A DNA stretch of 64,000 bases, from positions 14,879 to 78,878 of IMG/VR virus record IMGVR_UViG_3300044568_003163; one strand, 5' to 3'. The notes below the pieces were generated by a model. That model ran no database searches. It was not told the DNA's origin and worked only from the letters and a program-made list of their open reading frames with translations. Origin of the DNA: a virus. A program made the translations under genes and the position numbers. Below, piece by piece: positions 6,723-49,900 of the stretch; the stretch's first letter is position 1, and each line of letters starts with the position of its first letter.

Positions 6723-8284
6723 TAGTAGTTTTTATTTTTAGAAGGGATATTCCATTCTCTTCTTATTAAATTCAATTTCATCTTCACTGGTCCAGGTGAT
6801 GAATAAGTATATTTTATAGTGTTGATAACGTAATATCCACTAATATGTTCGTTCTTAATCTGATCTCTAGGATCCGTGCCAGATTTTTCTTTTGTAGTAG
6901 GGTCGGCATCTCCTGAACCACTTTCACTACTTCTTCCTCCAGTAGCATCTGCACTAGGATCAGGTGCTTTATCATATCCACCATCTTCTCCTAAAGCAGT
7001 ATCTCGATCTTTCATTTTTTCCATTCTAGTAGGATCCTTAGCAGAACCTTCATATATCAAAATAGGAATTCTCATATATCGATACAAATAGAAATTCATA
7101 CCAGCTAATTCAACATCGATACTAGTTTTATTAATTTCTTGTAGATTTTGGAAATTAAGTAAACCAGAAAATATATAGCTAGGATGTACGTTATCTGCCG
7201 ATTGCTTTCCTAACCACTTATATTTTACTTGGGATTTATAAGAATCATCACCCTTACGTCCTTTAGGTAGTATTGATTCTGTTTCTGATCCAGGAGTAGT
7301 TAAAGGATCTACAAACGTACTAATATATTCTGGTTTACCGGCACTGTCAATATCTAAGTATTGAGAATATCTCTTATATCCATTTTTAATCCAAACAGCA
7401 GCACTATTATTATTTGGTGCCCAATTTTCAATAAATACATTAGTTCCTGTTCTATCAGCTCTATTTGTTAGTACTAATGTACCTTTAATAGAATCCTTTA
7501 CGTCTTGTTGATTATATCCACCACTGGCAGGAGATGCCATACTTATATTAACGGTCTCAGTTTTATCTTCTAAATCAAATTGCTTATTGACATTAACTAA
7601 ACATAAATAATAATATGGGTCAATATACCAAGTAAAAAATGAATCATCATCTTTATAAACATTACATAAAGTGTCTTTTACGAAATGTTCGTATGTATCA
7701 AATGCACATATACGAGTCATTGAATCATCGGTTGAAGTTTCATTAGATGCAAAACCTAATTTAACGTCTTCGCATACCGTTTGTAATTGATCGAATGAAT
7801 TAGCGCTAGGAAATGATTTGCATCTTTCTGCTAAAAATCCTGGTATTTTCATTATACCTCTAAAAGAATATGATTGAGTTGCAGGACTACCGGAAATATC
7901 CATTATATCAAAATCTATTCTTATAGGTTTTTGATTATCTTCATCTGGTGGTTTTAAATATAAAGATATAACATCTCCATCAGTAGGAGCATCTAAAGAT
8001 AATTTACCTTCACTGTCATTAATTGCTAAGTCAAGAGTAGGTATATGGCTAGTCAAATCTAACGCCATATTAGTTATTTGGTCTTGATCGAATCGTGAAG
8101 AATTTACCATAATCAAAGGCATATAAGCACCCCATCTCGAAGTATTCTTCGTATTTACTGCTGGATCGATGGTTTCGGCAGCTTCGTCTCTGGCTTCTTT
8201 TGATTCTGTGTCTTGTTGAGTAATCAGATCGACTTTAATCTTTGGATCTATTATTGATACAATACTTCTTGATATAGTACTCAT
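6722..8284 (-). CDS. hypothetical structural protein
   Basis: 520-aa ORF, overlapping stop/start (ATGA) with neighbours, structural operon. Confidence 0.5.
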   Translation of the reverse strand: MSTISRSIVSIIDPKIKVDLITQQDTESKEARDEAAETIDPAVNTKNTSRWGAYMPLIMVNSSRFDQDQITNMALDLTSHIPTLDLAINDSEGKLSLDAPTDGDVISLYLKPPDEDNQKPIRIDFDIMDISGSPATQSYSFRGIMKIPGFLAERCKSFPSANSFDQLQTVCEDVKLGFASNETSTDDSMTRICAFDTYEHFVKDTLCNVYKDDDSFFTWYIDPYYYLCLVNVNKQFDLEDKTETVNISMASPASGGYNQQDVKDSIKGTLVLTNRADRTGTNVFIENWAPNNNSAAVWIKNGYKRYSQYLDIDSAGKPEYISTFVDPLTTPGSETESILPKGRKGDDSYKSQVKYKWLGKQSADNVHPSYIFSGLLNFQNLQEINKTSIDVELAGMNFYLYRYMRIPILIYEGSAKDPTRMEKMKDRDTALGEDGGYDKAPDPSADATGGRSSESGSGDADPTTKEKSGTDPRDQIKNEHISGYYVINTIKYTYSSPGPVKMKLNLIRREWNIPSKNKNY

Positions 8285-8841
8285 TAATTAGTTGTTTGAG
8301 TGAATTTTCCAGTTGATGACATCGAAGGAGCAAATAAGATATTCTCTCCGTCTGTTTTATATGGTACTTCTCCATTTCTAAGGAGATTTGTTGGTTTTAT
8401 TTCGGTTGCTCCATTAACTCTTTTATTTGCTATTTTTTGCAATTGAGCTATTCTAGCAATATCTTTCTGGCTAGCCTTAGTTGGATCTAAAAATAAAGCT
8501 TTTGTATCTATTATTGCCTGTGTTTGCGTTAGTTTTTCTTGTCGATAAAATTTAAGACCAGAAGCTAAAGTAGGAATTACTATAAAATCATATAATTCCA
8601 TAGAAAATGGATTAGATATTTGATTAAATTTTAAAATCATATCCACATAATCAATCGAATTATATGAATCATAAGAAATTAAATCCGGTCTACATATATG
8701 TCGATCTTCAATTAACATAACCTTAGCAATCTGTAAATTAGGATCAGAATAAGATATTTTAAAATTGTTCTCAAGAAAATCCATCACCATGATTCCCTCT
8801 CGTTTCATTTCAGATTTTAAGTCAAATAAGTGAATTTGCAT
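8284..8841 (-). CDS. hypothetical protein
   Basis: 185-aa ORF tightly packed in operon. Confidence 0.5.
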   Translation of the reverse strand: MQIHLFDLKSEMKREGIMVMDFLENNFKISYSDPNLQIAKVMLIEDRHICRPDLISYDSYNSIDYVDMILKFNQISNPFSMELYDFIVIPTLASGLKFYRQEKLTQTQAIIDTKALFLDPTKASQKDIARIAQLQKIANKRVNGATEIKPTNLLRNGEVPYKTDGENILFAPSMSSTGKFTQTTN

Positions 8842-8844
8842 TTG

Positions 8845-10548
8845 TTATCTTATTGTTTTTGCTGATTGGGTAACCTGTTCTGGTGTGTGATTAGGGAATC
8901 TAGAAGTAACAAAATCATGAGGTATTTGACTAAAATCTTGAGTTTTGAGCGAATCTGCTTTAGATTGACCTCTAGGCGTTACACCACCATTCTGTCCGCC
9001 ATTTCTTCTATTACCTGCATATTTAGTTTCTTGTGAAGGAGAAGTCAAATAAGTTCTACCGTTTCTAGAAAACATACCTAATATTTCAGTTCTATCTCTA
9101 GGTCTTGCTGGTGCTAATTTACATGTTACTCTTACCTTTGAAGGAAAATCGTCAAAACCTAAAGCTCCATATACCTCTACGTCAGTTTCAGTCAATACTA
9201 AGTTACCAATAGATATTATTGGATTTGCTGGGTTTCCTACCATTAGGTGCCATTCTCCAGTAGATTCTCCGGAAAGTAAAGCATTAAGTGCTTGTACACC
9301 AGGTCTACCCATTTTATCTAAAGCTCCACCTGCTATCTGAGACATTAAATTACCTCCCATAGTTTTTGCAGCATTCTTAATTCCTTCCCATGATAAACCT
9401 TTACCTCCAGAAAGACCGTTAAGTTTTCCAGAAATACCAGAAACTAGAGAATCAAAATATCCACTATAATCACCAGCTGCTAATTTATCCGGATCACCAA
9501 TAGGCTTCATTTGACGAGGATTTCCTCCATAATACCTAACATCACCTCCCCAGAAAGTACCTCTATTCATCGTACATATCATTATATTTGATAGTAAATC
9601 TAACATAGCAACTCTAGGATTTACTCCATCGATACTTCTAAGTTCATATTCAAATACGACTGTCATATCTTGCTTAAATTCTAGCCCAGTATCTCTAATT
9701 TGCATAGTTTTGATAACATCGATAGGACCAAATACTACATTTTCATTTTCGTATGGATTGAAACTATTAGTTGCAGGATTATTTGTTCGAGCAGCAGTTG
9801 ATGCAGCGGTATCTGTAATAGACATTAAAGATTTAATCAATCCACCACCTGGAAGTCCTTCCATTGCACCGGCCTCATTACCGTATCCAGGCTGAGATTC
9901 TTTAGTTTGTAATTCTGCAGTTAATTGCTTAAAATTTAATTTATGATTCCATTTAAGACCTACACTTTCCCATTTATTAGTATCTCCATCTACCCACGTA
10001 ATTAAACGTGCTATATCCGGATTCATATTCTTTTCTTTTGAAAATAAATCATCTTCAGGAGGCAGTTTAAATCTTCTAAGAGTTACCATATAATTATTAG
10101 GAACTCTACCATAATTTCTACACCAAAGGAAATCTTCCCATGCATATTCAACCGCATTAGATTTTCCTTCTCTACTCCAAGCTATAATATTCGAAGACGT
10201 AGGATTAGTTCGTAATTTTTGTAATGCTTCATCCTTAATACGGTTTGGTGAGTCTAAATAATCTTCTGGAGCGATAGCTACGGAATTCTGTTGATTAACA
10301 AAGAAAATCGAGTATCTGTTAAAAATAGCAGGCTTTCCTTTTTTATCGTAAGTTAGGTATTTTTTACCTGTACCTTTACCGTCTTTACCCTTTATTTCTA
10401 CACTAGATGGACCAGGAAAATCTTGGTCTTCAGTAGTGTAATATGTACCAATTCTCATTCCAGTGTTTGGCGGTTTTGGTGGTTCGTTTTCTGGACCGAT
10501 AGCATTATTGGTATTGCCTGACAGAATTGACGGTATGGGTGCAGCCAT
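8845..10548 (-). CDS. hypothetical structural protein (Gly-rich)
   Basis: 567-aa ORF; Gly/Asn-rich segments; structural operon context. Confidence 0.5.
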   Translation of the reverse strand: MAAPIPSILSGNTNNAIGPENEPPKPPNTGMRIGTYYTTEDQDFPGPSSVEIKGKDGKGTGKKYLTYDKKGKPAIFNRYSIFFVNQQNSVAIAPEDYLDSPNRIKDEALQKLRTNPTSSNIIAWSREGKSNAVEYAWEDFLWCRNYGRVPNNYMVTLRRFKLPPEDDLFSKEKNMNPDIARLITWVDGDTNKWESVGLKWNHKLNFKQLTAELQTKESQPGYGNEAGAMEGLPGGGLIKSLMSITDTAASTAARTNNPATNSFNPYENENVVFGPIDVIKTMQIRDTGLEFKQDMTVVFEYELRSIDGVNPRVAMLDLLSNIMICTMNRGTFWGGDVRYYGGNPRQMKPIGDPDKLAAGDYSGYFDSLVSGISGKLNGLSGGKGLSWEGIKNAAKTMGGNLMSQIAGGALDKMGRPGVQALNALLSGESTGEWHLMVGNPANPIISIGNLVLTETDVEVYGALGFDDFPSKVRVTCKLAPARPRDRTEILGMFSRNGRTYLTSPSQETKYAGNRRNGGQNGGVTPRGQSKADSLKTQDFSQIPHDFVTSRFPNHTPEQVTQSAKTIR

Positions 10549-13016: not shown

Positions 13017-15976
<2,960 letters not shown>

Positions 15977-15977
<1 letters not shown>

Positions 15978-16592: not shown

Positions 16593-17021
16593 TTATTGAA
16601 TTCTTTTAGTTTTGTCTATTAATTCAGGAAAAAAGAAGGACACTTCAGTAAGTGCATTTTCATCTGAATCAGAACCATGTATTGCATTCGAGGCTATAGA
16701 CGAGCCATACATACTACGGATAGTTCCTGGATTAGCTAATTTAGGGTCAGTATCACCTATCAAAGTTCTAAAATCTTCGATTGCATTTGTTTTTTGTAGT
16801 GCAATTGCAACAATCGGTCCAGAAGTCATGAATTTTATTAGGTCATCGTAGAAATCCTTAGATTTATGAACTGAATAAAATTCCGCAGCTTTATCAGGAG
16901 TCAGCATAGTAACTTTCATTCCTACGGTTTTGAAACCTTCAAAGCTAATTCGTTGTATTAATTGATCTGCCGATGCAAATACATCCGGCTTAATCATGGT
17001 CAATGTGTATGTTCCTATCAT
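16593..17021 (-). CDS. ndk: nucleoside diphosphate kinase
   Basis: 142 aa; MIKPDVF, PGTIRSMYG, NAIHGSDS motifs typical of NDK. Confidence 0.85.
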   Translation of the reverse strand: MIGTYTLTMIKPDVFASADQLIQRISFEGFKTVGMKVTMLTPDKAAEFYSVHKSKDFYDDLIKFMTSGPIVAIALQKTNAIEDFRTLIGDTDPKLANPGTIRSMYGSSIASNAIHGSDSDENALTEVSFFFPELIDKTKRIQ

Positions 17022-17024
17022 GAA

Positions 17025-17516
17025 TTATTTATCTTCGGAAAGATAAATCTTGCTGTACCAATCGAGTTTTAATTTTTCAATGTTACCATATTTGATTCCA
17101 CATTCGTCAAAGATGTGAAGATGTCCTTGTTCTCGGTAATCTTCTATCCAATAAACATATTTGAATCCCGAATTAACTAAGATTTTTGTACACATCTTAC
17201 ATGGAGAAAGAGTTAAGAGGATGATGTAATTCTTTGGATCGAATTCTCGGAACTTAGCAATCATATTAACTTCGGCATGAATGAATCCGCTTTCACCTGG
17301 AATTAGGGAATCCTCTTCAGTTCCTGTTACTTCATTTATTGGTGCACCTTTGTAGGAGCCATTATAGCCAAAAGAAGCTATTTTTGTAAAGTTTTTGTGC
17401 AATGCCATACATGCAACTTTTTTAGTTGATGCATTAGATAATGTAGCTATTTGCTGAATCATACCAGCAAAGGTATCAATTTTAAAGTCTATTCTTTCTT
17501 GTGTCATTATTTCCAA
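17025..17516 (-). CDS. dCMP deaminase (cytidine/deoxycytidylate deaminase family)
   Basis: 163 aa; zinc-binding HAEVNMI ... SPCKMCTKIL signature. Confidence 0.8.
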   Translation of the reverse strand: MEIMTQERIDFKIDTFAGMIQQIATLSNASTKKVACMALHKNFTKIASFGYNGSYKGAPINEVTGTEEDSLIPGESGFIHAEVNMIAKFREFDPKNYIILLTLSPCKMCTKILVNSGFKYVYWIEDYREQGHLHIFDECGIKYGNIEKLKLDWYSKIYLSEDK

Positions 17517-18100
17517 TCTGAATTTACGAGTCGAGTCTTAATACTAATTCCTTTTATTTCTTTGCCTAAAGCATCGGCAATCTTAATGTTTTCTCTATCA
17601 TCGTCATAGAAAATAAAATCTCTAAAACCTATTTTAATAAGTTCCATAAAAGCTTGTTTCTTTCTATCGGCAATTGAACCATCAAATCCATTGTTAGGAT
17701 CAGAAACTGCAAAGATATATTTCGGATTGACGTCTACTCCATGATGAGATAGGAATTGATAAATTAAATCTTTGTCGTCTCTAGCAGTAATGATACCTAC
17801 ACGCCTTCCTCTTTGCATTGTTTTCTTAAGTACATTGAAAACTCGTTCTATTAACTTACCGGCTTTTAAGATTTCTAAATTTTTAAAATCGGAAAAATCC
17901 ATTTCATGATGAGCGTGCTTTTCAAATTCATTGAATTCTGCAGGTGACAAGGTAAAAGTTTCACCGGTTTGACTATCATTAACTTTGATTTGTGAATTGG
18001 TAATTACCAATGTATCATCAACGTCAAATATAGTAATCGCTTCGAATTTTTCTTTACGAGTCGGATCTACAAAATCCTGATATTTTAAAAATTTATTCAT
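17507..18100 (-). CDS. HAD-superfamily phosphatase (nucleotidase-like)
   Basis: 197 aa; motif I FDVDDTL (DxDxT), downstream S/T and K/D motifs. Confidence 0.55.
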   Translation of the reverse strand: MNKFLKYQDFVDPTRKEKFEAITIFDVDDTLVITNSQIKVNDSQTGETFTLSPAEFNEFEKHAHHEMDFSDFKNLEILKAGKLIERVFNVLKKTMQRGRRVGIITARDDKDLIYQFLSHHGVDVNPKYIFAVSDPNNGFDGSIADRKKQAFMELIKIGFRDFIFYDDDRENIKIADALGKEIKGISIKTRLVNSDWK

Positions 18101-18187: not shown

Positions 18188-18721
18188 TTAGTAATCGTTT
18201 TCGAAATCAGCTTCGGTCATGTTGTCATTAACCCATTTTTCTAATTTCTTAGCATCTTTAGTAAGACAAGCAACATGTTGGAAAGATGAATATTCATCAC
18301 CTTCTTCCCATACTGCAACATCCACGTTTATATCTTTAATGTTGTAGATATAACCTGATAAATTAGAACCACCAAAAGGAGCTTCTCCACCAATACCTTT
18401 AAGTTCTTTAATGTTAAGATCCTTTTCTTCTACTCTGTGAGCTAATCCATAATATAAAGCTACTACGAATCGATAATCATCGTCTTCTGACATTGCATAA
18501 GTAACCGAATTGATATTTCCTTTCAATTGTTTAGCGATAGTTTCGAAGTTAGTTTTCATCTTAGCCAGCATATCATCATCTACCTCACCAGTTTCTTGTT
18601 GCATTTTAATCTGTGATGCTAAAGTAGTCTTAGTTTCAAAAGGGAATCCTGTATTATAATCGTATTTTTCGTTAATAAAATTCTCATTAACGAATTCTTG
18701 AAATGTTTGTAAATTTTTCAT
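18188..18721 (-). CDS. CTS-like N-terminal family member (putative capsid-packaged internal protein)
   Basis: 177 aa; N-terminus MKNLQTFQEFVNEN shared with 6 paralogs; resembles T4 IP capsid-targeting sequence MKTYQEFIAE (recalled). Confidence 0.5.
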   Translation of the reverse strand: MKNLQTFQEFVNENFINEKYDYNTGFPFETKTTLASQIKMQQETGEVDDDMLAKMKTNFETIAKQLKGNINSVTYAMSEDDDYRFVVALYYGLAHRVEEKDLNIKELKGIGGEAPFGGSNLSGYIYNIKDINVDVAVWEEGDEYSSFQHVACLTKDAKKLEKWVNDNMTEADFENDY

Positions 18722-18733
18722 TTGTTTATTTGT

Positions 18734-19237
18734 TTAATATCTGTCGTCTTCTTCCCATTCATCATCGCTTCCATAATCATCGTCATCATCATATTCTTCT
18801 TCTTGGTACCATGATTGGTTAGGGTCGTTGTCAGGTTGTTCTGTAAAATCGTGACGATCTGCGTTAAAACGTCTTGGATCTTCTACTAAAGCAGGAAAAA
18901 GCACTTTACCACCTTTTACTCTAGTTTTTGCATGACCAAAAGCTAAATCAATACCTACGTTTCTTAATTCTTTACCAGGTTTTTTATCAGATTCGGTATA
19001 ACCATTCATTTGGGCTAATAACTCATAATAGTCTTTACCTCCAAATACTCCGTAACCTTCGTAACTATTTTCTTCGTATCTAGTACCTTTATCATCAAAC
19101 ATGTAAACGGTAATAGTATTTTGTCTTTCTGAACCAATTTGTCTTCCAGAATCTTGGGTCATCCATGAAAATTGACCTTCATTTAAAGGTTTAGAATTTT
19201 CATTAACAAACTCGCTGAAGGTTTTTAAATTTTTCAT
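18734..19237 (-). CDS. CTS-like N-terminal family member, acidic C-terminus
   Basis: 167 aa; MKNLKTFSEFVNEN...; C-terminal EEEYDDDDDYGSDDEWEEDD. Confidence 0.5.
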   Translation of the reverse strand: MKNLKTFSEFVNENSKPLNEGQFSWMTQDSGRQIGSERQNTITVYMFDDKGTRYEENSYEGYGVFGGKDYYELLAQMNGYTESDKKPGKELRNVGIDLAFGHAKTRVKGGKVLFPALVEDPRRFNADRHDFTEQPDNDPNQSWYQEEEYDDDDDYGSDDEWEEDDRY

Positions 19238-19238
19238 A

Positions 19239-19631
19239 TTATTTACCTAATCCTGAAGTTATTTTACCAACTGCAGCACCCCAATCGTCACCTTTAACGT
19301 CTTTAGAAATACCAGCAATTACTTTGTCAGCAATTTTTTGATCGTATTTATCTCCGTGAGCTTTTTTCAAAAGCGTTTCTGCGTATTCTTTAAAGTCTTT
19401 TTCGTTTTTAATGTCAGCTTCATTTACTTTACCTTCATTAACTATCGAAATACTTTTTATGTAATCGAAAAATTCCGCAGATTGCTCTTCATTTAATTCG
19501 ATAGGTGAAGTAACACCAAATTGTTTAAGTTTGTTTTCGTATAGTTCATTGAACTTATGTGCTTGGTCTTCTTTAGTTTTTGCAACTTTTTGAAGTTTCT
19601 GCTCATTAACGAATTCTGAAAATTTTTGCAT
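19239..19631 (-). CDS. CTS-like N-terminal family member (short variant)
   Basis: 130 aa; MQKFSEFVNEQ... Confidence 0.45.
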   Translation of the reverse strand: MQKFSEFVNEQKLQKVAKTKEDQAHKFNELYENKLKQFGVTSPIELNEEQSAEFFDYIKSISIVNEGKVNEADIKNEKDFKEYAETLLKKAHGDKYDQKIADKVIAGISKDVKGDDWGAAVGKITSGLGK

Positions 19632-19650
19632 TGTTTTATGTTTGTTTATT

Positions 19651-20193
19651 TTATCCGAAATATTCGTTTTCGAAGTATAACAACTCGAAGTTGTTTTCTG
19701 GGTTTATTAATTGTAGTGCATTTAAGAATCCTGCATACTCAGCAGTAGAAGATGTATTTTGCTTAACATAGTCTTGTAAGAATACGAAAGTAGCCATATC
19801 ATTTAATCCAAAAATAGTTTTAGAATTTTCAGAATATGATTGAAGTAAACCATATTCCATGTCGTAAGCTTTTACGATGATGTCAGCCAAATTGTCGAAA
19901 TTCATATCAGTCGTAACTGTAGGAATTGTAGGTTTAACATCCCAATCGGTCATATATTTTTGTAGACCTTGAGCATGAATTAGTTCATCTGTAGCTTCAT
20001 TGTCAAAGAAAACAGCAGCTTTCTTATATTCCATGTTGTGGCACCAGTTAGCAGCACTACGATAGAAATAATGAGCAGTATATTCATCACCTATTCGTTG
20101 ATTGATAAGTTTAACAACTTCACTCCTAAGAGTATTAGGCTTTTTAACGATAGTTGGATCTACCGATTTAATTGATTCGTTTATGATATTCAT
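19651..20193 (-). CDS. ferritin-like protein
   Basis: 180 aa; EYTAHYFYRSAANWC...AAVFFDNEATDELIHAQGLQKYM matches ferritin diiron pattern E..Y.Y.S.A..(L..A.FF)..E..HA..L..Y. Confidence 0.5.
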   Translation of the reverse strand: MNIINESIKSVDPTIVKKPNTLRSEVVKLINQRIGDEYTAHYFYRSAANWCHNMEYKKAAVFFDNEATDELIHAQGLQKYMTDWDVKPTIPTVTTDMNFDNLADIIVKAYDMEYGLLQSYSENSKTIFGLNDMATFVFLQDYVKQNTSSTAEYAGFLNALQLINPENNFELLYFENEYFG

Positions 20194-20226
20194 ATAATAG
20201 TTTTAGTTCTTTTATATATCCAACAA

Positions 20227-20787
20227 TTACATGTTGGCGTCTAGAACTTTTTTGAATGATTTAGCATCAGTAACTTCTTCTCCGTGCAATTCAATAGTTT
20301 CTCTATCCAAATTGATGTAGATTTCTGAACCTTGATATTTCATATCTAAGATAATAGTGCTGTAGTTTTTTCCAATAGCTGTACCACCACTAATTCTTTT
20401 GCCTGCCTTTTCTGCCCATGTAGCAGCCTTTTTAACTAATGCAGTTGCATAGGAACCTTTACGTTTAGCAAATTCCATGATATTAGAAGGTACAGATGCA
20501 GCTTCATTAATTACAGATTCTTCTACTTTAAAAGTTTTGTTTCCTACTTTAACGGTTTTACCTATCAGATCATCAACACCATAAGGTTTTCCTAATTTGT
20601 CTTCGAAAGTTTGATCGTCTGACCAATCATCAGGAGTTTGTAAAAGTTTTGCAATCACATCGGCTTTAGAAGACGATTCAGTTCTACCCCAGTTGTCGAT
20701 AACCTCAGAGTAATAAACTATTTCGATTGCTCCTTCATTAACTGAAGATTCGTTAATGAATTCGTTGAATGTTTGTAAGTTTTTCAT
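20227..20787 (-). CDS. CTS-like N-terminal family member
   Basis: 186 aa; MKNLQTFNEFINES... Confidence 0.5.
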   Translation of the reverse strand: MKNLQTFNEFINESSVNEGAIEIVYYSEVIDNWGRTESSSKADVIAKLLQTPDDWSDDQTFEDKLGKPYGVDDLIGKTVKVGNKTFKVEESVINEAASVPSNIMEFAKRKGSYATALVKKAATWAEKAGKRISGGTAIGKNYSTIILDMKYQGSEIYINLDRETIELHGEEVTDAKSFKKVLDANM

Positions 20788-21176
20788 TATTGATCGATGA
20801 ATTCTCCATTTAGGAATCTAAGTAGAATTTTATCAGTGGGTTGTACATTTAAGTTTCCGTTGATAAAAATCTCATAAGAATCATCAGCATATTTGCCGAT
20901 GCCATAAAGCTCATTGGCTTTAGAGAATTTTTTATTTATATATTCATATGAGAACTTAATAATTCGCTGAGTTCTGACGTTATAAAATCCTAGAGTTCGG
21001 ATATGTTCTCGGATTTCATTTTCATCGGCATTAAGAACCGATTGTGGACTAGGCCATTTGTCAAAAAATGAGTAAATTACCTTTCTAACATTTTTGTTGC
21101 CTGTTTGATTTAACATAATGCAACCAATAAGCATTTTCCAGGGATCGTGTTGAAATTCTTGTTGAATAATTGCCAT
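20787..21176 (-). CDS. HhH-GPD superfamily DNA glycosylase-like protein (short)
   Basis: 129 aa; LIGCIMLNQT...ELYGIGKYADDSYEIF...NVQPTDKILLRF resembles EndoIII/HhH-GPD core. Confidence 0.45.
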   Translation of the reverse strand: MAIIQQEFQHDPWKMLIGCIMLNQTGNKNVRKVIYSFFDKWPSPQSVLNADENEIREHIRTLGFYNVRTQRIIKFSYEYINKKFSKANELYGIGKYADDSYEIFINGNLNVQPTDKILLRFLNGEFIDQ

Positions 21177-21183
21177 ATCTATT

Positions 21184-21822
21184 TTATGCTGATTTTTTTA
21201 ATTTGATTTTCTTTTCAGGTACCGGATTAGGTACATATTGAGAAACTGCTGAATTTACAAACTCCGAAGTCCACCATTCAGGTTGATTATTTAATTTGTT
21301 CCAGGAGACATTCATGTACGTCGTCTTGAACGCATAGTATTTTTTATAAGATATTACAGCATCACTAGATTGATAACAGATTGGCATCGCAGTGGCAAAA
21401 GGAGTAAGGCCTTTTGATATAATGTTTGGTGGATTTAATTTCATCCAATCAATAATTAATTTAACCGAGTGTGGATTGTTTTTCCATCGATTAAGAAATT
21501 CTTGACAAAGTTCTTCTGTGCATTCAATTAGCCAATTGAAATTTTCTTTAGATTCTCGAGTCCATATAGTGCATGGATGATTAACGTGACTGATTGCATA
21601 TGGATGATCTGTGCCATCTGGATGCTTTCTAGGCCAGCCTTTAAATATTTTACTAACTGCATCTTGATTTTCTGCAATTTCTTTCTTTTTGGAAATTCCT
21701 AACGTATGATAGTATGCAGCTGCTAACATTTGTGTGTGTTCGATTATCATTTTTGAAATGTGTTTATCGCAATGCATCTGTGCCGCAATTCTAGGATTTT
21801 CATCCAATACAAATATGTTCAT
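21184..21822 (-). CDS. hypothetical protein (start moved to internal Met MNIFVLDENPRIAAQMHCDKH)
   Basis: 6-frame ORF extends to 21912 through AT-rich cassette; the hydrophobic low-complexity N-terminus is unlikely to be coding; the internal ATG at 21822 lies just downstream of the 21838-21918 cassette. Confidence 0.45.
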   Translation of the reverse strand: MNIFVLDENPRIAAQMHCDKHISKMIIEHTQMLAAAYYHTLGISKKKEIAENQDAVSKIFKGWPRKHPDGTDHPYAISHVNHPCTIWTRESKENFNWLIECTEELCQEFLNRWKNNPHSVKLIIDWMKLNPPNIISKGLTPFATAMPICYQSSDAVISYKKYYAFKTTYMNVSWNKLNNQPEWWTSEFVNSAVSQYVPNPVPEKKIKLKKSA

Positions 21823-21837
21823 TGTAGTTAATTTATT

Positions 21838-21918
21838 TAAAGTAAAAATAATCAAATTAATTGACAAGAAAAAATAAAGTGAGTAGAAGTTATTAACAAA
21901 AAAGGAACTCAATAGAGT
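21838..21918 (-). promoter_or_regulatory. intergenic cassette (GTTAATAAC box + hairpin GGAACTCTATTGAGTTCC + T-run)
   Basis: plus strand gttattaacaaaaaaggaactcaatagagttcc. Confidence 0.45.
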
Positions 21919-21951
21919 TCCTTAATGTGTGCTTCGATTTGTGTTTGTTAT

Positions 21952-22320
21952 TTAGCTATTTAGCTGTTGGTATTCTCCGGTTGTATCATTTACTTTAGCC
22001 AATGAATCAGCATAAAATTTTTGATATAATTTATCGAATCTTCTATCTATCTCAGATTTGAGATTGTCGATATTATTTTCTGTCGCTAAAGTATATTCTT
22101 CGATTCGTCTTCCTCGTTCATCGATATTAGATATTAAGCTTTCTTCAACTTCATCAATTTTACGTTGAGTGTCGTCGTGTAAGTGGTGCAAATCTAAAAT
22201 TTGCTTTTCGTGAGTTATGTCGTTTTTTTGTGCCTTACGTATTCCTCTAACCATCCATATTTGCAGAATGACCAAAAGAGTTGCTAGTACGCTCAACACC
22301 GATATTAAAATTGGTTCCAT
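21952..22320 (-). CDS. membrane-anchored coiled-coil protein
   Basis: 122 aa; N-terminal TM helix ILISVLSVLATLLVILQIWMV then charged heptad-like region. Confidence 0.5.
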   Translation of the reverse strand: MEPILISVLSVLATLLVILQIWMVRGIRKAQKNDITHEKQILDLHHLHDDTQRKIDEVEESLISNIDERGRRIEEYTLATENNIDNLKSEIDRRFDKLYQKFYADSLAKVNDTTGEYQQLNS

Positions 22321-22355
22321 GTGTTTGTGTTTTATTTTTAAATCGAAGCACCAAT

Positions 22356-23501
22356 TTATTTTTTATTCATTTCAAAATCGATCATTTGTTTGATGGTTTC
22401 GTGTAATGATATTGTAATTCCTTTCCATTCTGGATAATCAGTTTTAAATTTAGTCAAATCTGAAATATACCAAATATGGTCACCAATTCGATTGTCTTCT
22501 AGAACTGTGAAGTCGTTCCAATCTTTATGTTCTGGATTTATTTCTCTTAAGATAGAATTTGCCGAATCGATTGCTTCTAGAATCGAAGTTGAATTTTCTC
22601 TACCACCACCTGCATTATAGACTGCACCAGGTATAGGGTTGTTATGATATTCTAAGAACATACTTACTAAGTCATCGGAATGGATATTATCTCTAACTTG
22701 TTTTCCTTTATAACCAAAGATGTTGTAATGTTTGTTGTTGACAATACACTTAATCAAATAAGCAAGAAATCCATGAAGTTCTGCACCTTGATGATTTGGT
22801 CCGGTTAAACAACCACCTCGAAATACAACCGTATTCATACCAAAATATCTGCCATATTCTTGAACCATAATATCAGCAGCTACTTTAGAAGCACCAAAGA
22901 TTGAATGTTTTGTATGGTCAATCGACATAGTTTCGTCTACTTCTATTTGACGAGCAGATAGATTCGAAAGAGCTTCATAACGAGTTTCTTGTTCAACGAT
23001 GTTTAATCGATTAGGAGTATCACCATAAACTTTATTAGTTGATGTGAATATGAATGTAGCAGTTGGACAATATAAACGAGTAAGTTCTAACAGGTTCATT
23101 GTACCTATTGCATTTACTGAGAAGTCAGTCAAAGGTTCTTTTGCTGCCCAATCATGTGAAGGTTGTGCTGCAGTATGTACGATCATTTGAATATCATAAA
23201 CTTCATGAGATTTGCCGAATATTGTAAGTTCGCTATCTTCTAAAGTAAGGCCTTTGAAAATTGTTTCTAATGTTGCATAATCTCGAATATCGATAGACAA
23301 TGGATTAAAGTTTGTTCCATAATCTAATTTCATTTTATTTTCTGATTCTTTCGTAGAAGCATCTTCACCAAAGAAATAAGCTCGCATATCATTATCGATA
23401 CCAACAACATAATAACCTTCATTAATAAGACGTTTAACAGTTTGAGAACCTATCAAACCTGAAGATCCTGTAACAATTGCAGTTTTAACTTTATTTTGCA
23501 T
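22356..23501 (-). CDS. NAD-dependent epimerase/dehydratase (SDR family, sugar-nucleotide modifying)
   Basis: 381 aa; Rossmann motif TAIVTGSSGLIGSQ; YxxxK-type catalytic region (YGASKVAAD). Confidence 0.75.
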   Translation of the reverse strand: MQNKVKTAIVTGSSGLIGSQTVKRLINEGYYVVGIDNDMRAYFFGEDASTKESENKMKLDYGTNFNPLSIDIRDYATLETIFKGLTLEDSELTIFGKSHEVYDIQMIVHTAAQPSHDWAAKEPLTDFSVNAIGTMNLLELTRLYCPTATFIFTSTNKVYGDTPNRLNIVEQETRYEALSNLSARQIEVDETMSIDHTKHSIFGASKVAADIMVQEYGRYFGMNTVVFRGGCLTGPNHQGAELHGFLAYLIKCIVNNKHYNIFGYKGKQVRDNIHSDDLVSMFLEYHNNPIPGAVYNAGGGRENSTSILEAIDSANSILREINPEHKDWNDFTVLEDNRIGDHIWYISDLTKFKTDYPEWKGITISLHETIKQMIDFEMNKK

Positions 23502-24063
23502 TTTTTATAATTGAGTTTTTAATTAAGAGTTTTTCGATTTCTACTATTGATTGTTCAATAGATTTTACAGATGAATCAATTTCGATAAATCGATTTTTCC
23601 ATTTACCAGAATCCGAATGATTTTTGTAATAGTCATAATACCAATCGAACGAATCTTTTTGTTTAATAAAGTCGTTTTGAGAATAGATGATTCGATCTTT
23701 TGGTTTTCGTTCTACGTATTTTTCGTATGTAGTTGAAAGATAAATTATGGCAAAATTATTATCAAGGAGTAAATCACTTAATGAATCATCTTCTTTGATT
23801 AGAGATTTTCTTTCAAAGAATTTTGAGTAAACTAATTCAGAAAGAAAAGAACGATCTAAGATGAAAGTTTCTTCAGGAAATGCAGAGTACATCATATTAG
23901 CCATCACATGAATTCCGTGATAGAATTCATGTAAGTTTTCAATACATTCAGGCATTTTGTCTTTTACTGACATTTGACGGAATCCGTATTTTTTAGAAAG
24001 TATTTCTGCAATCGAAGATTTTCCTGTTCGAGAAAGTCCTTCAAGTATAATTAGTTTTGCCAT
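23491..24063 (-). CDS. P-loop deoxynucleoside monophosphate kinase-like protein (T4 gp1-like)
   Basis: 190 aa; MAKLIILEGLSRTGKSSIAEIL resembles T4 gp1 MKLIFLSGVKRSGKDTTADFI (recalled). Confidence 0.55.
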   Translation of the reverse strand: MAKLIILEGLSRTGKSSIAEILSKKYGFRQMSVKDKMPECIENLHEFYHGIHVMANMMYSAFPEETFILDRSFLSELVYSKFFERKSLIKEDDSLSDLLLDNNFAIIYLSTTYEKYVERKPKDRIIYSQNDFIKQKDSFDWYYDYYKNHSDSGKWKNRFIEIDSSVKSIEQSIVEIEKLLIKNSIIKNAK

Positions 24064-24085
24064 AATTGTTATATGATGAAATCGA

Positions 24086-25375
24086 TTATTTGGTTAAGCA
24101 AGTGCGAATATCATTTACAATTCTATCACATGCAGACTCATATGATTCGTGGTCATATCCTACTTTGTGACATAATTCTCGCATTTGAGTTTCGCCGATA
24201 GTGCCAATCGTATGTAATGCAGTTCTTAATTGATATGCAACATCTTTTACGTCGGGTTTGTGAGTATTAACAGAATCAATTTTCGTGAAGTAAGGATATT
24301 CAGCATGACCAGCTTTTATCATTTTGTGCAGGTAGTTATTTACTCGAGGAAATACTAAAATGTTTTTTGCCATCATAGCTTCGCAATGAGTTACACCACC
24401 ATGAACTTCAGTAACAAATAAATTACAAGCAATATGGGTTTTGTTGATAAACCTTAAATAATCTTCTCGAGTAAATTTTTCGTTATTTGGCATTACTTCG
24501 ACGTGACCTTTTGATAAATCATTAATCAATTGTAATTGTTCATCAGTTACTTTACGAGTAGGATTTAACATTACAGCTCTGAAAGGTTTGTCGGTGATAG
24601 TAGATAAAATTCCAATTGCTTCGGCAAATGAATCGTAATTAGTGTAACGATTTGCAGTATCTGAAATTCGATTACCAAAGTAAATTGTAGGAATTTCAAA
24701 TTTTTCATCGTTATGGTATTTTGCAATTTCTGCATAATGAGCACCTACACCCCATACTGACTGAGGAGCAAGTATTTCTCGAGTTTTAAATAGAATATCA
24801 TAAGCTTCCATTGCTTCTACTCTACCAGCTTCACATTGAAATGCAGCAATATCAGATGCAATAAAAGATTCCATTTGTCTTTCGTAATAACGAATTTTCT
24901 GCGGAACTTTATTTGCAATAGGAGAATCTAAGAAATAATTTGTAGAAATGATTTTCACTTCTTTGTTTCCAATAGTTTCAAATGCAACTCGCCAATTTTT
25001 TGTTAATGTGTTTTCGTCATTAATCATTACATCGACATGAGGAAATCTTACAAGATTTGTTTGATGGTAATCGAAGTTGAAATTGTAACGAGAGGTCACA
25101 GGAGAAATAGGAATAATGTCTTCGTAAATTTGAATTGATGAATGATATTTCTCATCAAATAATTCGTAAATGTCGATCACATCATCGCAATGACCTGCAG
25201 GTGGTAATTTTACAATGAAATGGAATTCGTTAGGATTTTGTTCTAATATGGTTGAAATTATACCAACCGCAATATTAGTACATGCATCGTTTCTTAATAA
25301 CCATTGAGGATAACCATTTCGATTAGTGAAATTAGAAACTTGAATTGCATAAAAGATTGTTGTTTTTTTATTCAT
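24086..25375 (-). CDS. hypothetical protein (429 aa) within nucleotide-modification cluster
   Basis: ORF extends to 25432 but overlaps upstream gene; ATG at 25375 (MNKKTTIFYAIQ) sits 5 nt after stop of 25380-26105. Confidence 0.5.
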   Translation of the reverse strand: MNKKTTIFYAIQVSNFTNRNGYPQWLLRNDACTNIAVGIISTILEQNPNEFHFIVKLPPAGHCDDVIDIYELFDEKYHSSIQIYEDIIPISPVTSRYNFNFDYHQTNLVRFPHVDVMINDENTLTKNWRVAFETIGNKEVKIISTNYFLDSPIANKVPQKIRYYERQMESFIASDIAAFQCEAGRVEAMEAYDILFKTREILAPQSVWGVGAHYAEIAKYHNDEKFEIPTIYFGNRISDTANRYTNYDSFAEAIGILSTITDKPFRAVMLNPTRKVTDEQLQLINDLSKGHVEVMPNNEKFTREDYLRFINKTHIACNLFVTEVHGGVTHCEAMMAKNILVFPRVNNYLHKMIKAGHAEYPYFTKIDSVNTHKPDVKDVAYQLRTALHTIGTIGETQMRELCHKVGYDHESYESACDRIVNDIRTCLTK

Positions 25376-25379
25376 TAAA

Positions 25380-26105
25380 TTACATTTTAGAATAGTTAAT
25401 AGTAGAGTGTGGTAGGTTTTGTATGTAATCAAAATCCTTTTTGAAAACGTGAGCAGAAACTACAGACGAAGAAAATTTACCTGGTTCAACTTCTAGTTTT
25501 TCTGCTAATTCGCAAGTAAATCGACCCCATAAGTACATATCAAGCTTAAGGACTTGTGCCATATTTTGAGATCGCATATGAACATGAACATTTAGCTTTT
25601 CATCTCGGATAAAGAAAGTAGCAGAATCGGTACATGGAAATTCTAAAGATTCGTTTTTATCTAAAAGATTAAGGTCATCTTTATCGAGAATCATAATGAC
25701 TGCTCTTCGAGTATCAGGTTTATCTCGCAATTCCTTTTCGATTGTAGGTAATTGTGATAAAATACGAGGACCATAGAAGGTATTGAAGTTTTCTGGAAGT
25801 TGGTCAGACTTTGGCTTTTCCATAAACTTAGTGACGTTTGGATATTTGTCGATAATTTCGGTTGAGTCTGTGCAACCGTTCATCATCCAACGATAAAAGG
25901 TATCAGCATAATCATAGTCTAATTTACCAATCAACTCGTTCGTAAATTGATAACTGGTTAAATCGAGTACATCATAACTCAATCCTGTAATTTCATGTAC
26001 TTCACCAATGCGAGAAGTAGTTTGAAATTCAGGATTGTCTATAATATGCTGAGAAGTTTGTAAGAAAGCTTCTTCAAAAGTTTCAAATGTAGAATATTTG
26101 TGCAT
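25380..26105 (-). CDS. thymidylate synthase superfamily enzyme; dCMP hydroxymethylase-like
   Basis: 241 aa; DTRRAVIMI, FPCTDSATFFIRDEKLNVHVHMRSQN...KLD closely parallels T4 gp42 DSRRGIMIY...FMCTNTVQYLIRDKKINAVVNMRSND...RND (recalled); Asp at the position that is Asn in ThyA. Confidence 0.6.
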   Translation of the reverse strand: MHKYSTFETFEEAFLQTSQHIIDNPEFQTTSRIGEVHEITGLSYDVLDLTSYQFTNELIGKLDYDYADTFYRWMMNGCTDSTEIIDKYPNVTKFMEKPKSDQLPENFNTFYGPRILSQLPTIEKELRDKPDTRRAVIMILDKDDLNLLDKNESLEFPCTDSATFFIRDEKLNVHVHMRSQNMAQVLKLDMYLWGRFTCELAEKLEVEPGKFSSSVVSAHVFKKDFDYIQNLPHSTINYSKM

Positions 26106-26137
26106 AAAAAATAGTTTTAAATCTTATGCAAAATTTG

Positions 26138-26491
26138 CTATTTTGTATCAAGTAATTTTACTTTAGCAACACAAAGTTTTTCTTTGATTTTATCAGTTTT
26201 GATTTTACCAAATCTAGAGAAGACCATTCGGGTCATATTAGGATTGATTCTATCCTTAATGATATTATCTAGTTCCTCACCTTTAATATTTGAATAAGTT
26301 CTCAATTCAAATCGATCTTCTTCAATGTGAGTTAACATAATTGAACCGTTCATAAAGAAAAGCCTTTTTGCAGTTTCGAAATCTTGCTTCAAAATGAAGT
26401 CGTTCATAAACTCGTTTTTCATAGTCTTATTTAGTGTTAAGACTACCAATGATTCGTTAATGAACTCATCGTATTTTTTAAATGTGCTCAT
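26138..26491 (-). CDS. CTS-like N-terminal family member
   Basis: 117 aa; MSTFKKYDEFINESL. Confidence 0.45.
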   Translation of the reverse strand: MSTFKKYDEFINESLVVLTLNKTMKNEFMNDFILKQDFETAKRLFFMNGSIMLTHIEEDRFELRTYSNIKGEELDNIIKDRINPNMTRMVFSRFGKIKTDKIKEKLCVAKVKLLDTK

Positions 26492-26976
26492 TACTTATTT
26501 AATTTTACCTCTATGATATTTTTAGGTCCTTTAGAAATAGTGGCCTTAGGGAATTCATGTTTAATATATTTAGAATAGAGATTAAGTCTAGCTATGTTTG
26601 TAGTTTCTCCTTTCTTTTTTGCTGGTGTAAATACGAGAATATCTACTTCGGGATGTGTACTTAAGTCTTTCTTAATTACATCTACGACGGTTGCCATTAC
26701 TTTAAATAGTTCTCCCTTATTTGTTACAATATCATCTCTTTCAATGTCTGGATCTTCATCATCCGGAACATAGAATCTCACAGATAAAACGTTGTTTGCA
26801 CCTTCATAATCGTCTATGTCGTCGTATTGTAGTTCTACCGTATATGGATAGCTTGGTGTTTCAAATCCATATATTCTTGCATTGCCATAATCACCATAAA
26901 AATCAGGATGATATGCCTTTGAACTGGAATCTCCTATTTCGTTTAAGAATTCGTCGTATGATGGTAAATTTTTCAC
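26491..26976 (-). CDS. CTS-like N-terminal family member
   Basis: 161 aa; MKNLPSYDEFLNEI. Confidence 0.5.
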   Translation of the reverse strand: MKNLPSYDEFLNEIGDSSSKAYHPDFYGDYGNARIYGFETPSYPYTVELQYDDIDDYEGANNVLSVRFYVPDDEDPDIERDDIVTNKGELFKVMATVVDVIKKDLSTHPEVDILVFTPAKKKGETTNIARLNLYSKYIKHEFPKATISKGPKNIIEVKLNK

Positions 26977-27338
26977 TAGTCTTGTTTTGGTTTTTCGCCT
27001 TTACCTTTTAACCAATCGGCAACATCAGAATCCGTAGTTTCGTATCCTTTAGTTTTTCTAATGAAAGCATTTAAACGAGCATAACCCCATGCAGTATATG
27101 CTGCAGGACCTCTACCAATTTTTTGAATGTTAGGATTAACAGCACCCCAATTAGTTTCAGCTGCACCATAACCTCTTTTAAAGAGCATAGTTAATGCATC
27201 TTCGATTTGAGCAGGAGATCCACCAATAGCTTTTTTAGTTTTTGGATCGTTTGCAAGTTCCTTTATTCTATCATCTACTTTGCTATCTTCATTTAATGCA
27301 AAATCGACGAATTCGTCGTAAGTTATTAGATTTTTCAC
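26976..27338 (-). CDS. CTS-like N-terminal family member
   Basis: 120 aa; MKNLITYDEFVDFALNE. Confidence 0.5.
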   Translation of the reverse strand: MKNLITYDEFVDFALNEDSKVDDRIKELANDPKTKKAIGGSPAQIEDALTMLFKRGYGAAETNWGAVNPNIQKIGRGPAAYTAWGYARLNAFIRKTKGYETTDSDVADWLKGKGEKPKQD

Positions 27339-48533: not shown

Positions 48534-48714
48534 AATAAATAGTTTATTGTTATATGTTTGAAAGAGTAAATATAATCAACATTATCTAAAAATGAAAACT
48601 TTAGAGCATTTAGTTATTAACAAATACAACAAAAGCTCAATCTTACGATTAAGCTTTATCGAAGGTATATTAGGCCATACCAATAACCAGGACCTTTTCC
48701 CTAGGGAAATGTCG

Positions 48715-48797
48715 TGACCAAAGAGGGACTCGAACCCTCACGCTCAAAGAGCACCAGCTTCTTAGACTGGCGTGTCTACCAATTCCACCACTCGGCC
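48715..48797 (-). tRNA. tRNA, class II (long variable arm), Leu-like; anticodon loop CUAAGAA ambiguous
   Basis: T-arm GAGGGTTCGAGTCCCTC, D-arm GTGG-AATTGGTAG-ACAC (Leu-type), acceptor with G:U pairs. Confidence 0.55.
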
Positions 48798-48925
48798 GTA
48801 ATGAGCAATCCTATGGAATTACTGCAGTTTATCCAAAGGTCGTATATAGCTTGCAGACTAAGATTCTGCTGGATTTTCACCTTCATAAAGCTGGATATCA
48901 ACGACCCTTATCGCGATTCTCATTG

Positions 48926-48999
48926 TACCCGAGATGGGACTCGAACCCACACTGTACAGGGTTTAAGTCTGATGCCTCTTCCAATTGGGCTACCCGGGC
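48926..48999 (-). tRNA. tRNA, class-I-like, anticodon loop CUUAAAC (UAA) with weak anticodon stem
   Basis: T-arm GTGGGTTCGAGTCCCAT; paralog of 49276-49348. Confidence 0.45.
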
Positions 49000-49159
49000 A
49001 AATTAAAGAAGTAAGAAAATGAACTCCTTAACAGCTGAACGTTCAATAACTTTAAGAATCATTTTGCTTGTATCTCTAGGATTTGCAACTCCTATAAATT
49101 CACAAAATGCTTTTTGTTTATTCATTATTGTTCATTTCAATTTTGTTATTGCATTATTA

Positions 49160-49240
49160 GGAATAACGATACTATAGGACTCGAACCTATACCTTCCAGC
49201 TCGCTCGCCGGAATTCTACCAAATTAAACTAAATACCAAC
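49160..49240 (-). other. tRNA-like element with canonical T-arm but unresolved cloverleaf (possible pseudogene)
   Basis: ATAGGTTCGAGTCCTAT T-arm; no acceptor pairing found by eye. Confidence 0.25.
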
Positions 49241-49275
49241 CTTTTTATCTCAATAACAAAAGATGTCCTTCTTTG

Positions 49276-49348
49276 TACCTAAGGAGGGATTCGAACCCAC
49301 ACTGTCATGCTCCTAAGGCATGTGCCTCTTCCGTTGGGCTACTTAGGC
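49276..49348 (-). tRNA. tRNA, class-I-like with anticodon UAG (Leu codon CUA)
   Basis: acceptor GCCTAAG/CTTAGGT, anticodon arm CATGC-CTTAGGA-GCATG, T-arm GTGGGTTCGAATCCCTC. Confidence 0.55.
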
Positions 49349-49556
49349 AAATTGGTAAGTGATGGCCTACTTGTTACCATCTGTCTCTGTTTAGTTGCAA
49401 CCACTAATCCTGAATGTAGAGAACTTACCTTTTGTTTTATGTTAGCTAATAAACATTGTTTCTAATGTTATTAACATCATCTTTTTAATTTTTGTACATT
49501 ATAATATACATTAAGCCACAATATGACGTGTTTTGTATATTATAGTGTACATTTTG

Positions 49557-49629
49557 AGCTGACAATCAGGATCGAACTGATGACCTCTTCGATACCAACG
49601 AAGTGTTCTTCCAACTGAACTATGTCTGC
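49557..49629 (-). tRNA. tRNA-Thr (GGU)
   Basis: D GTTC-AGTTGGAA-GAAC, anticodon arm CTTCG-TTGGTAT-CGAAG, T-arm ATCAGTTCGATCCTGAT. Confidence 0.65.
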
Positions 49630-49649
49630 ATATTACAGGGTTGTTAATT

Positions 49650-49736
49650 ACCTCTTTCGAGGATTTCGGAGTTGAACCGATAGACAAAATTTCAAGTTTC
49701 GTGTTTAACCAATAGTTGTTTGCTGAAACAACCCTT
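49650..49736 (-). other. tRNA-like element (T-loop GGTTCAACTCC) with unresolved structure
   Basis: between two Thr tRNAs; contains hairpin GTTGTTTCAGCAAACAAC. Confidence 0.25.
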
Positions 49737-49739
49737 TTG

Positions 49740-49813: not shown

Positions 49814-49823
49814 ATATGTTTCG

Positions 49824-49894: not shown

Positions 49895-49900
49895 ATGTAG

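Follow-up and report, generated by a model that had tools for sequence, protein, structure and literature searches.

In phage T4, the internal proteins (IPs) carry a short N-terminal capsid targeting sequence (CTS), in which mutagenesis assigns residues 4 and 7 to targeting and residues 8 and 10 to processing (PMC9026906), and in which Asp10 blocks cleavage. The motif cut by the T4 prohead protease, gp21, is L/I-X-E, with cleavage following the Glu; the scaffold protein gp22 co-purifies with the IPs. CTS-like proteins are known in close T-even relatives, where the IPs themselves are poorly conserved and other CTS-bearing proteins occur instead, and we found no description in the literature of a CTS-like leader in phages of Bacteroidota or in huge phages. 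Here, we analyze a 64,000-nucleotide stretch of viral DNA (positions 14,879 to 78,878 of IMG/VR record IMGVR_UViG_3300044568_003163; hereafter, the window) from an uncultured phage of ~294 kb belonging to a Bacteroidota clade, in which seven genes share an N-terminal leader. This leader is a modular, virus-restricted element that is associated with T4-type head genes, ends in a [VIL]NE code that recurs in the scaffold and major capsid protein (MCP) of the same phages, and precedes cargo whose boundary lies at [LIV]-x-E. We consider it likely, from these correspondences, that the shared N terminus is a T4-type CTS joined to a prohead-protease cleavage site.

The initial annotation of the window had proposed a seven-gene family with a common N-terminal signature. 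All seven genes are minus-strand open reading frames (ORFs), and a strict leader pattern, [FY]x[ED]F[VIL][ND][EF], run on the six-frame translation of the window, gave exactly seven matches, each at an ORF N terminus. The signature as originally worded, MKNLx[TS][FY]xEF[VIL]NE, holds literally for genes 18188, 18734, 20227, and 26491 (named here by their first coordinate), but 19239, 26138, and 26976 deviate from it. The seven genes and one borderline case are as follows, with slashes marking predicted cleavage points.

18188..18721, minus strand: leader protein, 177 aa, MKNLQTFQEFVNE/NFINE/K..., leader match E = 5.8e-10; predicted propeptide residues 1-13 or 1-18, nt 18668-18721; acidic cargo, isoelectric point (pI) 4.5
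18734..19237, minus strand: leader protein, 167 aa, MKNLKTFSEFVNE/NSKPLNE/GQFSW...; predicted propeptide residues 1-20, nt 19178-19237
19239..19631, minus strand: leader protein, 130 aa, leader MQKFSEFVNE/Q, nt 19602-19631; leader match E = 3.4e-4
20227..20787, minus strand: leader protein, 186 aa, MKNLQTFNEFINE/SSVNE/G, nt 20734-20787
26138..26491, minus strand: leader protein, 117 aa, MSTFKKYDEFINE/S, nt 26453-26491; leader match E = 5.6e-7
26491..26976, minus strand: leader protein, 161 aa, GTG start, MKNLPSYDEFLNE/IGDSSS, nt 26938-26976; cargo with a predicted GNAT-like fold
26976..27338, minus strand: leader protein, 120 aa, GTG start, MKNLITYDEFVDFALNE/D, nt 27288-27338; leader match E = 1.7e-5
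17507..18100, minus strand: borderline, probably not a member; HAD/PNK-phosphatase-like protein starting MNKFLKYQDFVDP, without a [VIL]xE site; leader match E = 0.025

Comparison of the seven N termini supports the grouping: a profile hidden Markov model (HMM; the source of the leader matches above) that was trained on 104 leaders from other phages, with no window sequence included, scored 918 candidate starts across the window and placed these seven genes first (E = 6e-10 to 3e-4). The eighth match is the borderline gene 17507-18100, and all lower-ranked starts are noise. The N terminus of this gene is kept in its orthologue (locus L025, 5380-5979, MPKFLKYSDFVDP) and could be related to the leader, as a form that has degenerated or is not cleaved. 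The window has a GC content of ~32%, and peptides rich in K, N, F, E, and I are common in such a genome; still, there is a negligible probability that the motif is a chance or low-complexity effect of AT-rich DNA or an artifact of ORF calling. Against the seven motifs observed, shuffling of DNA triplets gives a chance expectation of 0.13, and shuffling of protein residues gives 0.043 overall and 0.007 for the first 20 residues. The independent HMM cleanly splits the seven genes from the 911 other candidate starts, and gene calls on many independent contigs yield identical proteins. The shuffles and the HMM together refute a chance origin.

By pairwise blastp, the likeness among the seven members is limited to their first 10 to 20 residues, fading after ~13 to 18, and the bodies that follow are unrelated, as the initial annotation had held. 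Conserved leader residues are encoded by varying synonymous codons (AAT/AAC, TTA/CTA, GAA/GAG, and TTT/TTC) and the DNA upstream of the seven genes is not conserved, such that selection acts on the leader peptide and not on the DNA; conservation at the DNA level, as in a promoter or recombination box, is ruled out by the same comparison. The conserved leader positions are [FY]7, F10, [VIL]11, and E13, corresponding to F4, F7, V8, and E10 in the 10-residue leader of 19239 (MQKFSEFVNE), which has the length and register of the T4 CTS. The tripeptide [VIL]-N-E is present in all seven members, and 15 of the 27 such tripeptides in the window fall within these proteins, which account for 5.6% of its residues. 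In 26976, the NE is shifted by 4 residues (…EFVDFALNE).

In the T4 genome, IPII and IPIII start MKTYQEFIAE/, with a second site (KLE/) in IPII, but IPI starts MKTFKEFTS…ITE/, so that the initial annotation, which attributed MKTYQEFIAE to all three proteins, was correct for two of them. The four T4 positions with assigned functions align exactly with [FY]7, F10, [VIL]11, and E13 of the leader. The likeness extends to the presence of a 10- to 19-residue propeptide at the extreme N terminus of otherwise unrelated small proteins, a core of T-[FY]-x-E-F-[VI]-x-E, an (L/I/V)-x-E cleavage motif with double sites like those of IPII (IAE/...KLE/), the location of the genes outside the head module in a variable region (in T4, beside denV, e, and nudE and beside the tRNA cluster), and turnover among relatives. 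The window leader differs from the T4 CTS in usually having three additional N-terminal residues (MKN-L...), with its Glu at position 13 and not 10, and in a P2 residue that is nearly always Asn. Moreover, the clade consists of uncultured huge Bacteroidota phages and not T-even coliphages, and the family is known here from sequence alone. The cargos themselves are mostly acidic and have no sequence likeness to the IPs; Pfam and PHROG searches showed no homology of the members to IPI, IPII, or IPIII, and of the six mature parts with a computed pI, only that of 26138 is basic like them.

A second comparison is offered by the processed head and ejection proteins of the giant phages phiKZ, 201phi2-1, and SPN3US, which likewise have a large capsid, many internal proteins, several sites per propeptide, and a gp21-related protease that cuts after the Glu of a three-residue motif; in SPN3US, gp53 and gp54 are paralogues with identical N termini. 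These phages differ in their motif (S/A-x-E), in the length of most of their propeptides (>100 residues), in having no short portable leader common to dozens of unrelated proteins, and in belonging to another lineage (Chimalliviridae and relatives, with Proteobacteria hosts). The mature part of the SPN3US ejection protein gp47 starts with a transmembrane (TM) helix, and two leader proteins of other loci (L044 1981-2364 and L019 3124-3498) are similar in that a hydrophobic TM-like segment stands directly after the second LNE (…EMLNE/DSSSLITSFMLLMQSTLMLTLAIQK).

Beyond the window, a degenerate DNA pattern for the leader matched 54 ORFs in IMG/VR, always at the N terminus of small, diverse proteins, and only once in 596 Gb of bacterial and archaeal genomes; judged by these searches, the leader is virus-specific. 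The sole cellular match (L056 3525-3563, minus strand) is situated on a 28.5-kb contig binned to a Candidatus Saccharibacteria metagenome-assembled genome, at the start of a membrane-protein-like ORF beside masked bases, and could represent a mis-binned phage contig or a chance match. The loci sampled contain 207 strict-leader ORFs encoding 152 unique proteins, whose cargo forms at least 84 unrelated clusters. Among the 152 unique proteins, Glu occupies residue 13 in 109, P1' is mostly S/A/N/G, and 31 have a second [VILM]NE within 12 residues, most commonly at a distance of 5 residues. Pfam matches were obtained for only 4 of 41 representative cargos, namely, to pentapeptide repeats, to RimK ATP-grasp with a Zn-protease, to DUF3175, and, weakly, to DUF6934. 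The leader-tagged pentapeptide-repeat protein (L092/L093 1864-2379; PF00805, E = 4e-47) has a DNA-mimic fold, and the RimK-type proteins (L071 14478-16190 and L040 12517-14010) are leader-tagged proteins of ~570 aa that combine an ATP-grasp domain with a putative Zn-protease and DUF5661 and are kept downstream of the MCP in relatives.

Turnover is evident between close relatives. Syntenic relatives with 40 to 80% protein identity share the flanks of the leader region (HhH-GPD and dCMP deaminase genes on one side and a thymidylate-synthase homologue and ligase on the other) and differ in the sets of leader genes between them. Several window cargos can be followed among these loci: the syntenic position in L021 is occupied by a homologue of the 18188 cargo that bears a leader of its own, the 19239 homologue in L021 bears the leader MQKFTEFLVE, 26138 has a leader-bearing homologue in L044, and 26976 is the window cargo whose homologues occur in the largest number of the loci sampled (L044, L031, L016, and L023). 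Homologues of the 20227 cargo are found in the head modules of relatives (L061 1320-2294, L072 26-862, and L093 7200-8885); the last of these lies between the protease-scaffold gene and the MCP gene, and one homologue in this position is 561 aa long and has the leader MKHVKTFDKFIAE.

These head modules are of the T4 type. With T4 gp20, gp21, and gp23/24 as queries, an MCP, a portal (E ~1e-26), and a protease domain (E ~1e-10) were detected directly beside leader genes in about ten leader loci. The protease domain in these loci forms the N terminus of a ~630-aa protein, up to six leader genes in a run lie ahead of the portal, and a single one separates the protease-scaffold gene from the MCP gene, in a head module whose MCP is 56% identical to that of the uncultured huge phage LR756500.1. 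IMG/VR contains at least 551 such head modules, of which we analyzed 80 more; as many as 8 leader genes occur in a run inside the head modules of relatives, with those of the L012 sub-clade containing up to 8 by a looser pattern and 6 by the strict one.

The window has baseplate and tail-fiber genes and a T4 gp13-type neck gene, but searches within it detected no portal, protease, or MCP, and the stretch covered past its left end contains neck, baseplate, and tail genes only. The clamp loader of its 246-kb syntenic relative is 81 to 86% identical to those beside L012-type heads, and an L012-type MCP query led to the MCP P0260 (PF07068), whose locus is L143. A contig of 294,034 bp is the largest for both P0260 and P0121 (an exact copy of the 26491 protein), and JGI sample 3300043568 contains both P0260 and exact copies of window genes. 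Based on the common contig size and the shared sample, L143 is very probably the head module of the window phage. It encodes Phage_T4_gp2, Portal_T4, and Gp23, a 637-aa fusion of Peptidase_S77 (PF03420) and scaffold with 8 [VIL]NE/[SGT] sites (7285-9198), an MCP starting MYLINE/, and five leader genes (MKLSTFDEWLNE, MNRLLKFADFVNE, MKNLLSFAEFINE…LNE, MKKLLSFDEFVNE, and MKNLLTFAEFINESILNE), one of which lies between the protease-scaffold and MCP genes, in the slot equivalent to that of T4 gp22/67/68. If the assignment of L143 is correct, then the window phage resembles T4 in having homologues of gp20, gp21, gp23, gp13, and gp2; it differs in that protease and scaffold form one polypeptide, as opposed to separate genes 21 and 22, and in the abundance of its leader genes (at least 12 in 79 kb of this genome). 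The fusion of a gp21-family protease to a scaffold domain of ~440 residues is also seen in L012 (9134-11026) and in Tenacibaculum phage PTm1 (L055 37853-39547).

The tripeptide at the end of the leader recurs in the head proteins. The scaffold parts of six protease-scaffold proteins contain 43 [VIL]NE against ~4 expected, a 10.7-fold enrichment that derives from six homologous scaffolds and not from independent observations. Asn is the most enriched P2 residue at these sites, and the P1' residues (S/G/N/T/A) are the same as those after leaders. Many L/I-x-E cut sites are likewise a feature of the T4 gp22 scaffold. In all 77 head loci with a detected MCP (of the 80 analyzed), the MCP N terminus reads x(1-6)-[IL]NE and is followed by a conserved P-[IVL]-[IL]-E within a gp23-like propeptide.

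The same code delimits the cargo. In the family of 18734, [LIV]-x-E directly precedes the conserved domain (GQF[ST]W…) in 117 of 118 homologues, even though their propeptides are anywhere from 17 to 163 residues long and belong to at least 8 classes that are unrelated to one another; in the family of 26491, it does so in 57 of 57. Most 26491 homologues (P0124-P0161) bear another 10-residue leader, MIKLIDILKE or, more generally, MI[KR]LxD[IL]LKE, which matches the pattern of the T4 gp24 propeptide (MAKINELLRE); the MCPs of the clade, with their start x-L-I-N-E, are also similar. The leaders of the 26491 homologues suggest that there are two or more classes of leader that can replace one another and that T4 has a counterpart of each. 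Long cargo proteins resemble polyproteins with linkers of the form …[ES][SV][VIL]NE/[GSA]…, and such sites occur in 20227 (ESVINE/AAS, residues 93-95) and in 19239, whose internal sites (LNE at residues 46-48 and VNE at 64-66 and 69-71, in SIVNE/GKVNE/A) predict its fragmentation. In 18734 and 26491, the core is conserved, is modeled as a confident fold, and is devoid of [VIL]NE sites.

These observations bear on whether the N terminus might be a generic signal with no connection to the capsid (a degron, an enhancer of translation initiation, or a helix that binds membranes or partners) or a DNA recombination site for the shuffling of cassettes. A-rich codons, here AAA AAT, often follow the start codon of strongly expressed genes, and leader genes at syntenic positions do act like shuffled cassettes. 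We nonetheless judge this explanation very improbable, as synonymous sites vary while amino acids are kept and upstream DNA is unconserved, and as the conserved features are hydrophobic and aromatic residues and the terminal Glu rather than start-proximal codons alone. A generic signal also fits poorly with leader genes that are associated with T4-type head modules, with a tripeptide that is both enriched in the scaffold and found heading the MCP, and with a cargo boundary exactly after [LIV]xE even behind unrelated propeptides.

A T4-type mechanism would account for these features as follows. The leader would form a short amphipathic helix, whose hydrophobic face (L4, F/Y7, F10, and V/I/L11) would dock the protein on the scaffold core during prohead assembly. 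The scaffold-fused, gp21-family serine protease (Peptidase_S77) would then cut after the invariant Glu of (V/I/L)-N-E, with a frequent second cut at an (L/I/V)NE ~5 residues on and further cuts at internal linker sites, and cleavage would release the mature cargo within the capsid. The mature cargo might leave the capsid along with the DNA, as the T4 IPs and Alt do, or might serve as a disposable component of the core.

Several points weigh against this interpretation. The six scaffolds behind the [VIL]NE enrichment are, as mentioned above, not independent. The link between L143 and the window is inferential, resting on an identical largest-contig size and shared samples. The mature cargo of five of the six members for which pI was computed is acidic (4.3 to 6.2), in contrast to the basic, DNA-associated T4 IPs, with 26138 having the only basic cargo (pI 9.4); 26976 has no NE at positions 12-13; and the leader genes of the window lie among nucleotide-metabolism genes and do not adjoin head genes, although T4 ip genes are similarly placed. 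Finally, two cultured relatives do not have this leader. Whole-genome scans of Flavobacterium phage MaF61, the nearest annotated isolate, recovered T4-type head genes but not the leader family, and those of PTm1 a [VIL]NE-rich scaffold but not an MKNL-type leader. In PTm1, both the scaffold and the MCP propeptide are rich in [VIL]NE, and two large proteins start MGLLDHVNE/A (L140 15267-16457, ORF-082) and MKLFETINE/S (L141 39854-41695, ORF-187), which may be a local, short variant of the leader in a cultured phage.

On balance, targeting and cleavage are strongly supported by comparison, not experiment, and it is from such comparison that we infer packaging, cleavage, and ejection. The core of the original proposal, that a leader cleaved after x-N-E marks capsid-packaged proteins, is supported by several independent comparisons, namely, the coincidence with the T4 CTS determinants, the head module, and the cargo boundary; the proposal as a whole is supported in part. 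Relative to T4, what is new by these comparisons is a leader with its own consensus (a three-residue N-terminal extension and Asn at P2), a greatly expanded number of genes, and polyprotein and enzyme cargo, all in a distant clade of uncultured huge phages.

The function of the cargo is a separate question. Scans of the seven members against Pfam and PHROGs returned nothing above threshold, and no member matches known anti-defense proteins. In AlphaFold2 models of 18734 and 26491, the N-terminal peptide is of low confidence and includes a short helix (residues 7-13 or 7-11), whereas the cargo domain behind it is modeled with confidence. The core of 18734 has no structural neighbors in the PDB and precedes a poly-acidic C-terminal tail that is predicted to be disordered. 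The cargo of 26491 has a GNAT-like fold in its predicted structure, yet it has neither a GNAT match in Pfam (its match to DUF6934, at E = 1.8e-4, is sub-threshold) nor any match in a PDB sequence-profile search with its family. The suggestion in the initial annotation that members may be inhibitor-type proteins finds no support from 26491, whose modeled fold is like that of an enzyme and not an inhibitor. Indirect hints of a host-directed function come from the enzyme-like and pentapeptide-repeat cargo in relatives. Roles of the cargo as injected effectors or in anti-defense are, on our analysis, possible but on the doubtful side.

The alternative most deserving of consideration retains targeting and cleavage and departs from our interpretation only in the fate and function of the cargo, which would act as disposable parts of the assembly machinery or the core, comparable to T4 gp67, gp68, and gp22, and be broken into fragments and expelled rather than injected into the host. 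Such a role would fit 19239 and perhaps 18734: several internal [VIL]NE sites would fragment both 19239 and 20227, the tail of 18734 resembles the poly-acidic tail of T4 gp67, the cargos are mostly acidic, and many leader genes lie within head modules, one of them in the gp22/67/68-equivalent slot. The tail of 18734 is explained equally well as a gp67-like feature of the prohead core as by DNA mimicry. For the family as a whole, we consider this role unlikely. Folded, enzyme-like cargo (GNAT-like and RimK ATP-grasp) and a pentapeptide repeat speak against it, as do the folded cores of 18734 and 26491, which are free of [VIL]NE, and 84 cargo clusters with turnover between close relatives would be unusual for assembly components. 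T4 gp22, gp67, gp68, and gp24 are conserved, essential assembly proteins, whereas the window members are variable and non-core.

With respect to its genomic setting, the window encodes structural proteins that are nearest to those of uncultured huge phages (LR756500.1; 462 kb, 36% identity) and next nearest to those of Lak, Tenacibaculum, and Flavobacterium jumbo phages. In the head region of LR756500.1, the MCP starts MIKLINE, the protease-scaffold protein has only 2 [VIL]NE, and there are no leader genes nearby. Against deposited phages, neither megablast of the leader region nor tblastn of three members returned a match, and no phage record in INPHARED matched the 18734 or 26491 proteins.

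The leader genes are interleaved with others that plausibly constitute a nucleotide- or DNA-modification (hypermodification) cluster, as judged from their domains. Between 20787 and 28572 (minus strand) are an HhH-GPD glycosylase, an NAD-dependent sugar epimerase/dehydratase, a dTMP-kinase-like protein, a divergent thymidylate-synthase homologue, a GT2-like protein, and a NUDIX protein, along with two ORFs (21184-21912 and 24086-25432, the latter of 448 aa) that have no Pfam matches; dCMP deaminase and NDK genes lie just downstream, at 16593-17516. Also among the leader genes is a ferritin-like gene (19651-20193, minus strand; PF00210, E = 1.5e-20), whose product starts MNIINE/S, an N-terminal I-N-E that recalls the MCP start MYLINE. 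The GTG starts of 26491 and 26976 overlap the upstream stop codon by 1 nt, and one-base overlaps of start and stop are seen at the ATG of 26138 (TAATG, 26489-26493) and the GTG of 26491 (TAGTG, 26974-26978), suggesting translational coupling of the three-gene leader block. Elsewhere in the window, 35 tRNA genes form a cluster at 48714-56390 (minus strand) that includes four tRNA-Met(cat) genes, several duplicated isoacceptors, and an ARAGORN call (49166-49238) with a four-base anticodon (agcg) and no amino acid assigned. Two paralogous tail-fiber-like proteins of ~990 aa (13017-15977, minus strand, and 37495-40476, plus strand) have a common N terminus that includes …[LM]DDMF…; the former has collagen-like repeat matches, and GC content is raised locally (~0.40) in both regions.

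The capsid contents of huge phages are largely unknown because almost none of these phages have been cultured. If the leader works like the T4 CTS, then the leader HMM and the [LIV]-x-E junction would provide a sequence-only rule for recognizing the capsid-loaded proteins of a widespread aquatic phage clade, one that reaches at least 551 related head modules in IMG/VR and a single cargo family with >900 homologues. The specificity of the protease would be predicted, with Asn at P2, and phage capsids engineered for protein delivery would gain a second, orthogonal packaging tag. It would also follow that the residues found in T4 to direct targeting and processing have been kept on both sides of a very deep divergence within the phages that have T4-type heads, and a large pool of ORFan proteins would be nominated as first-wave effectors and possible anti-defense proteins. 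More speculatively, and with confidence just short of even, we propose that the portable, ~13-residue leader and its (V/I/L)-N-E code define a large, fast-turning, capsid-delivered “injectome” of these abundant, uncultured, huge Bacteroidota phages, which would be readable from sequence and would include enzymes (GNAT-like and RimK-type ATP-grasp), a DNA mimic made of pentapeptide repeats, proteins that insert into membranes, and dozens of proteins without a recognizable family, some of which may be new counter-defense or host-takeover effectors.

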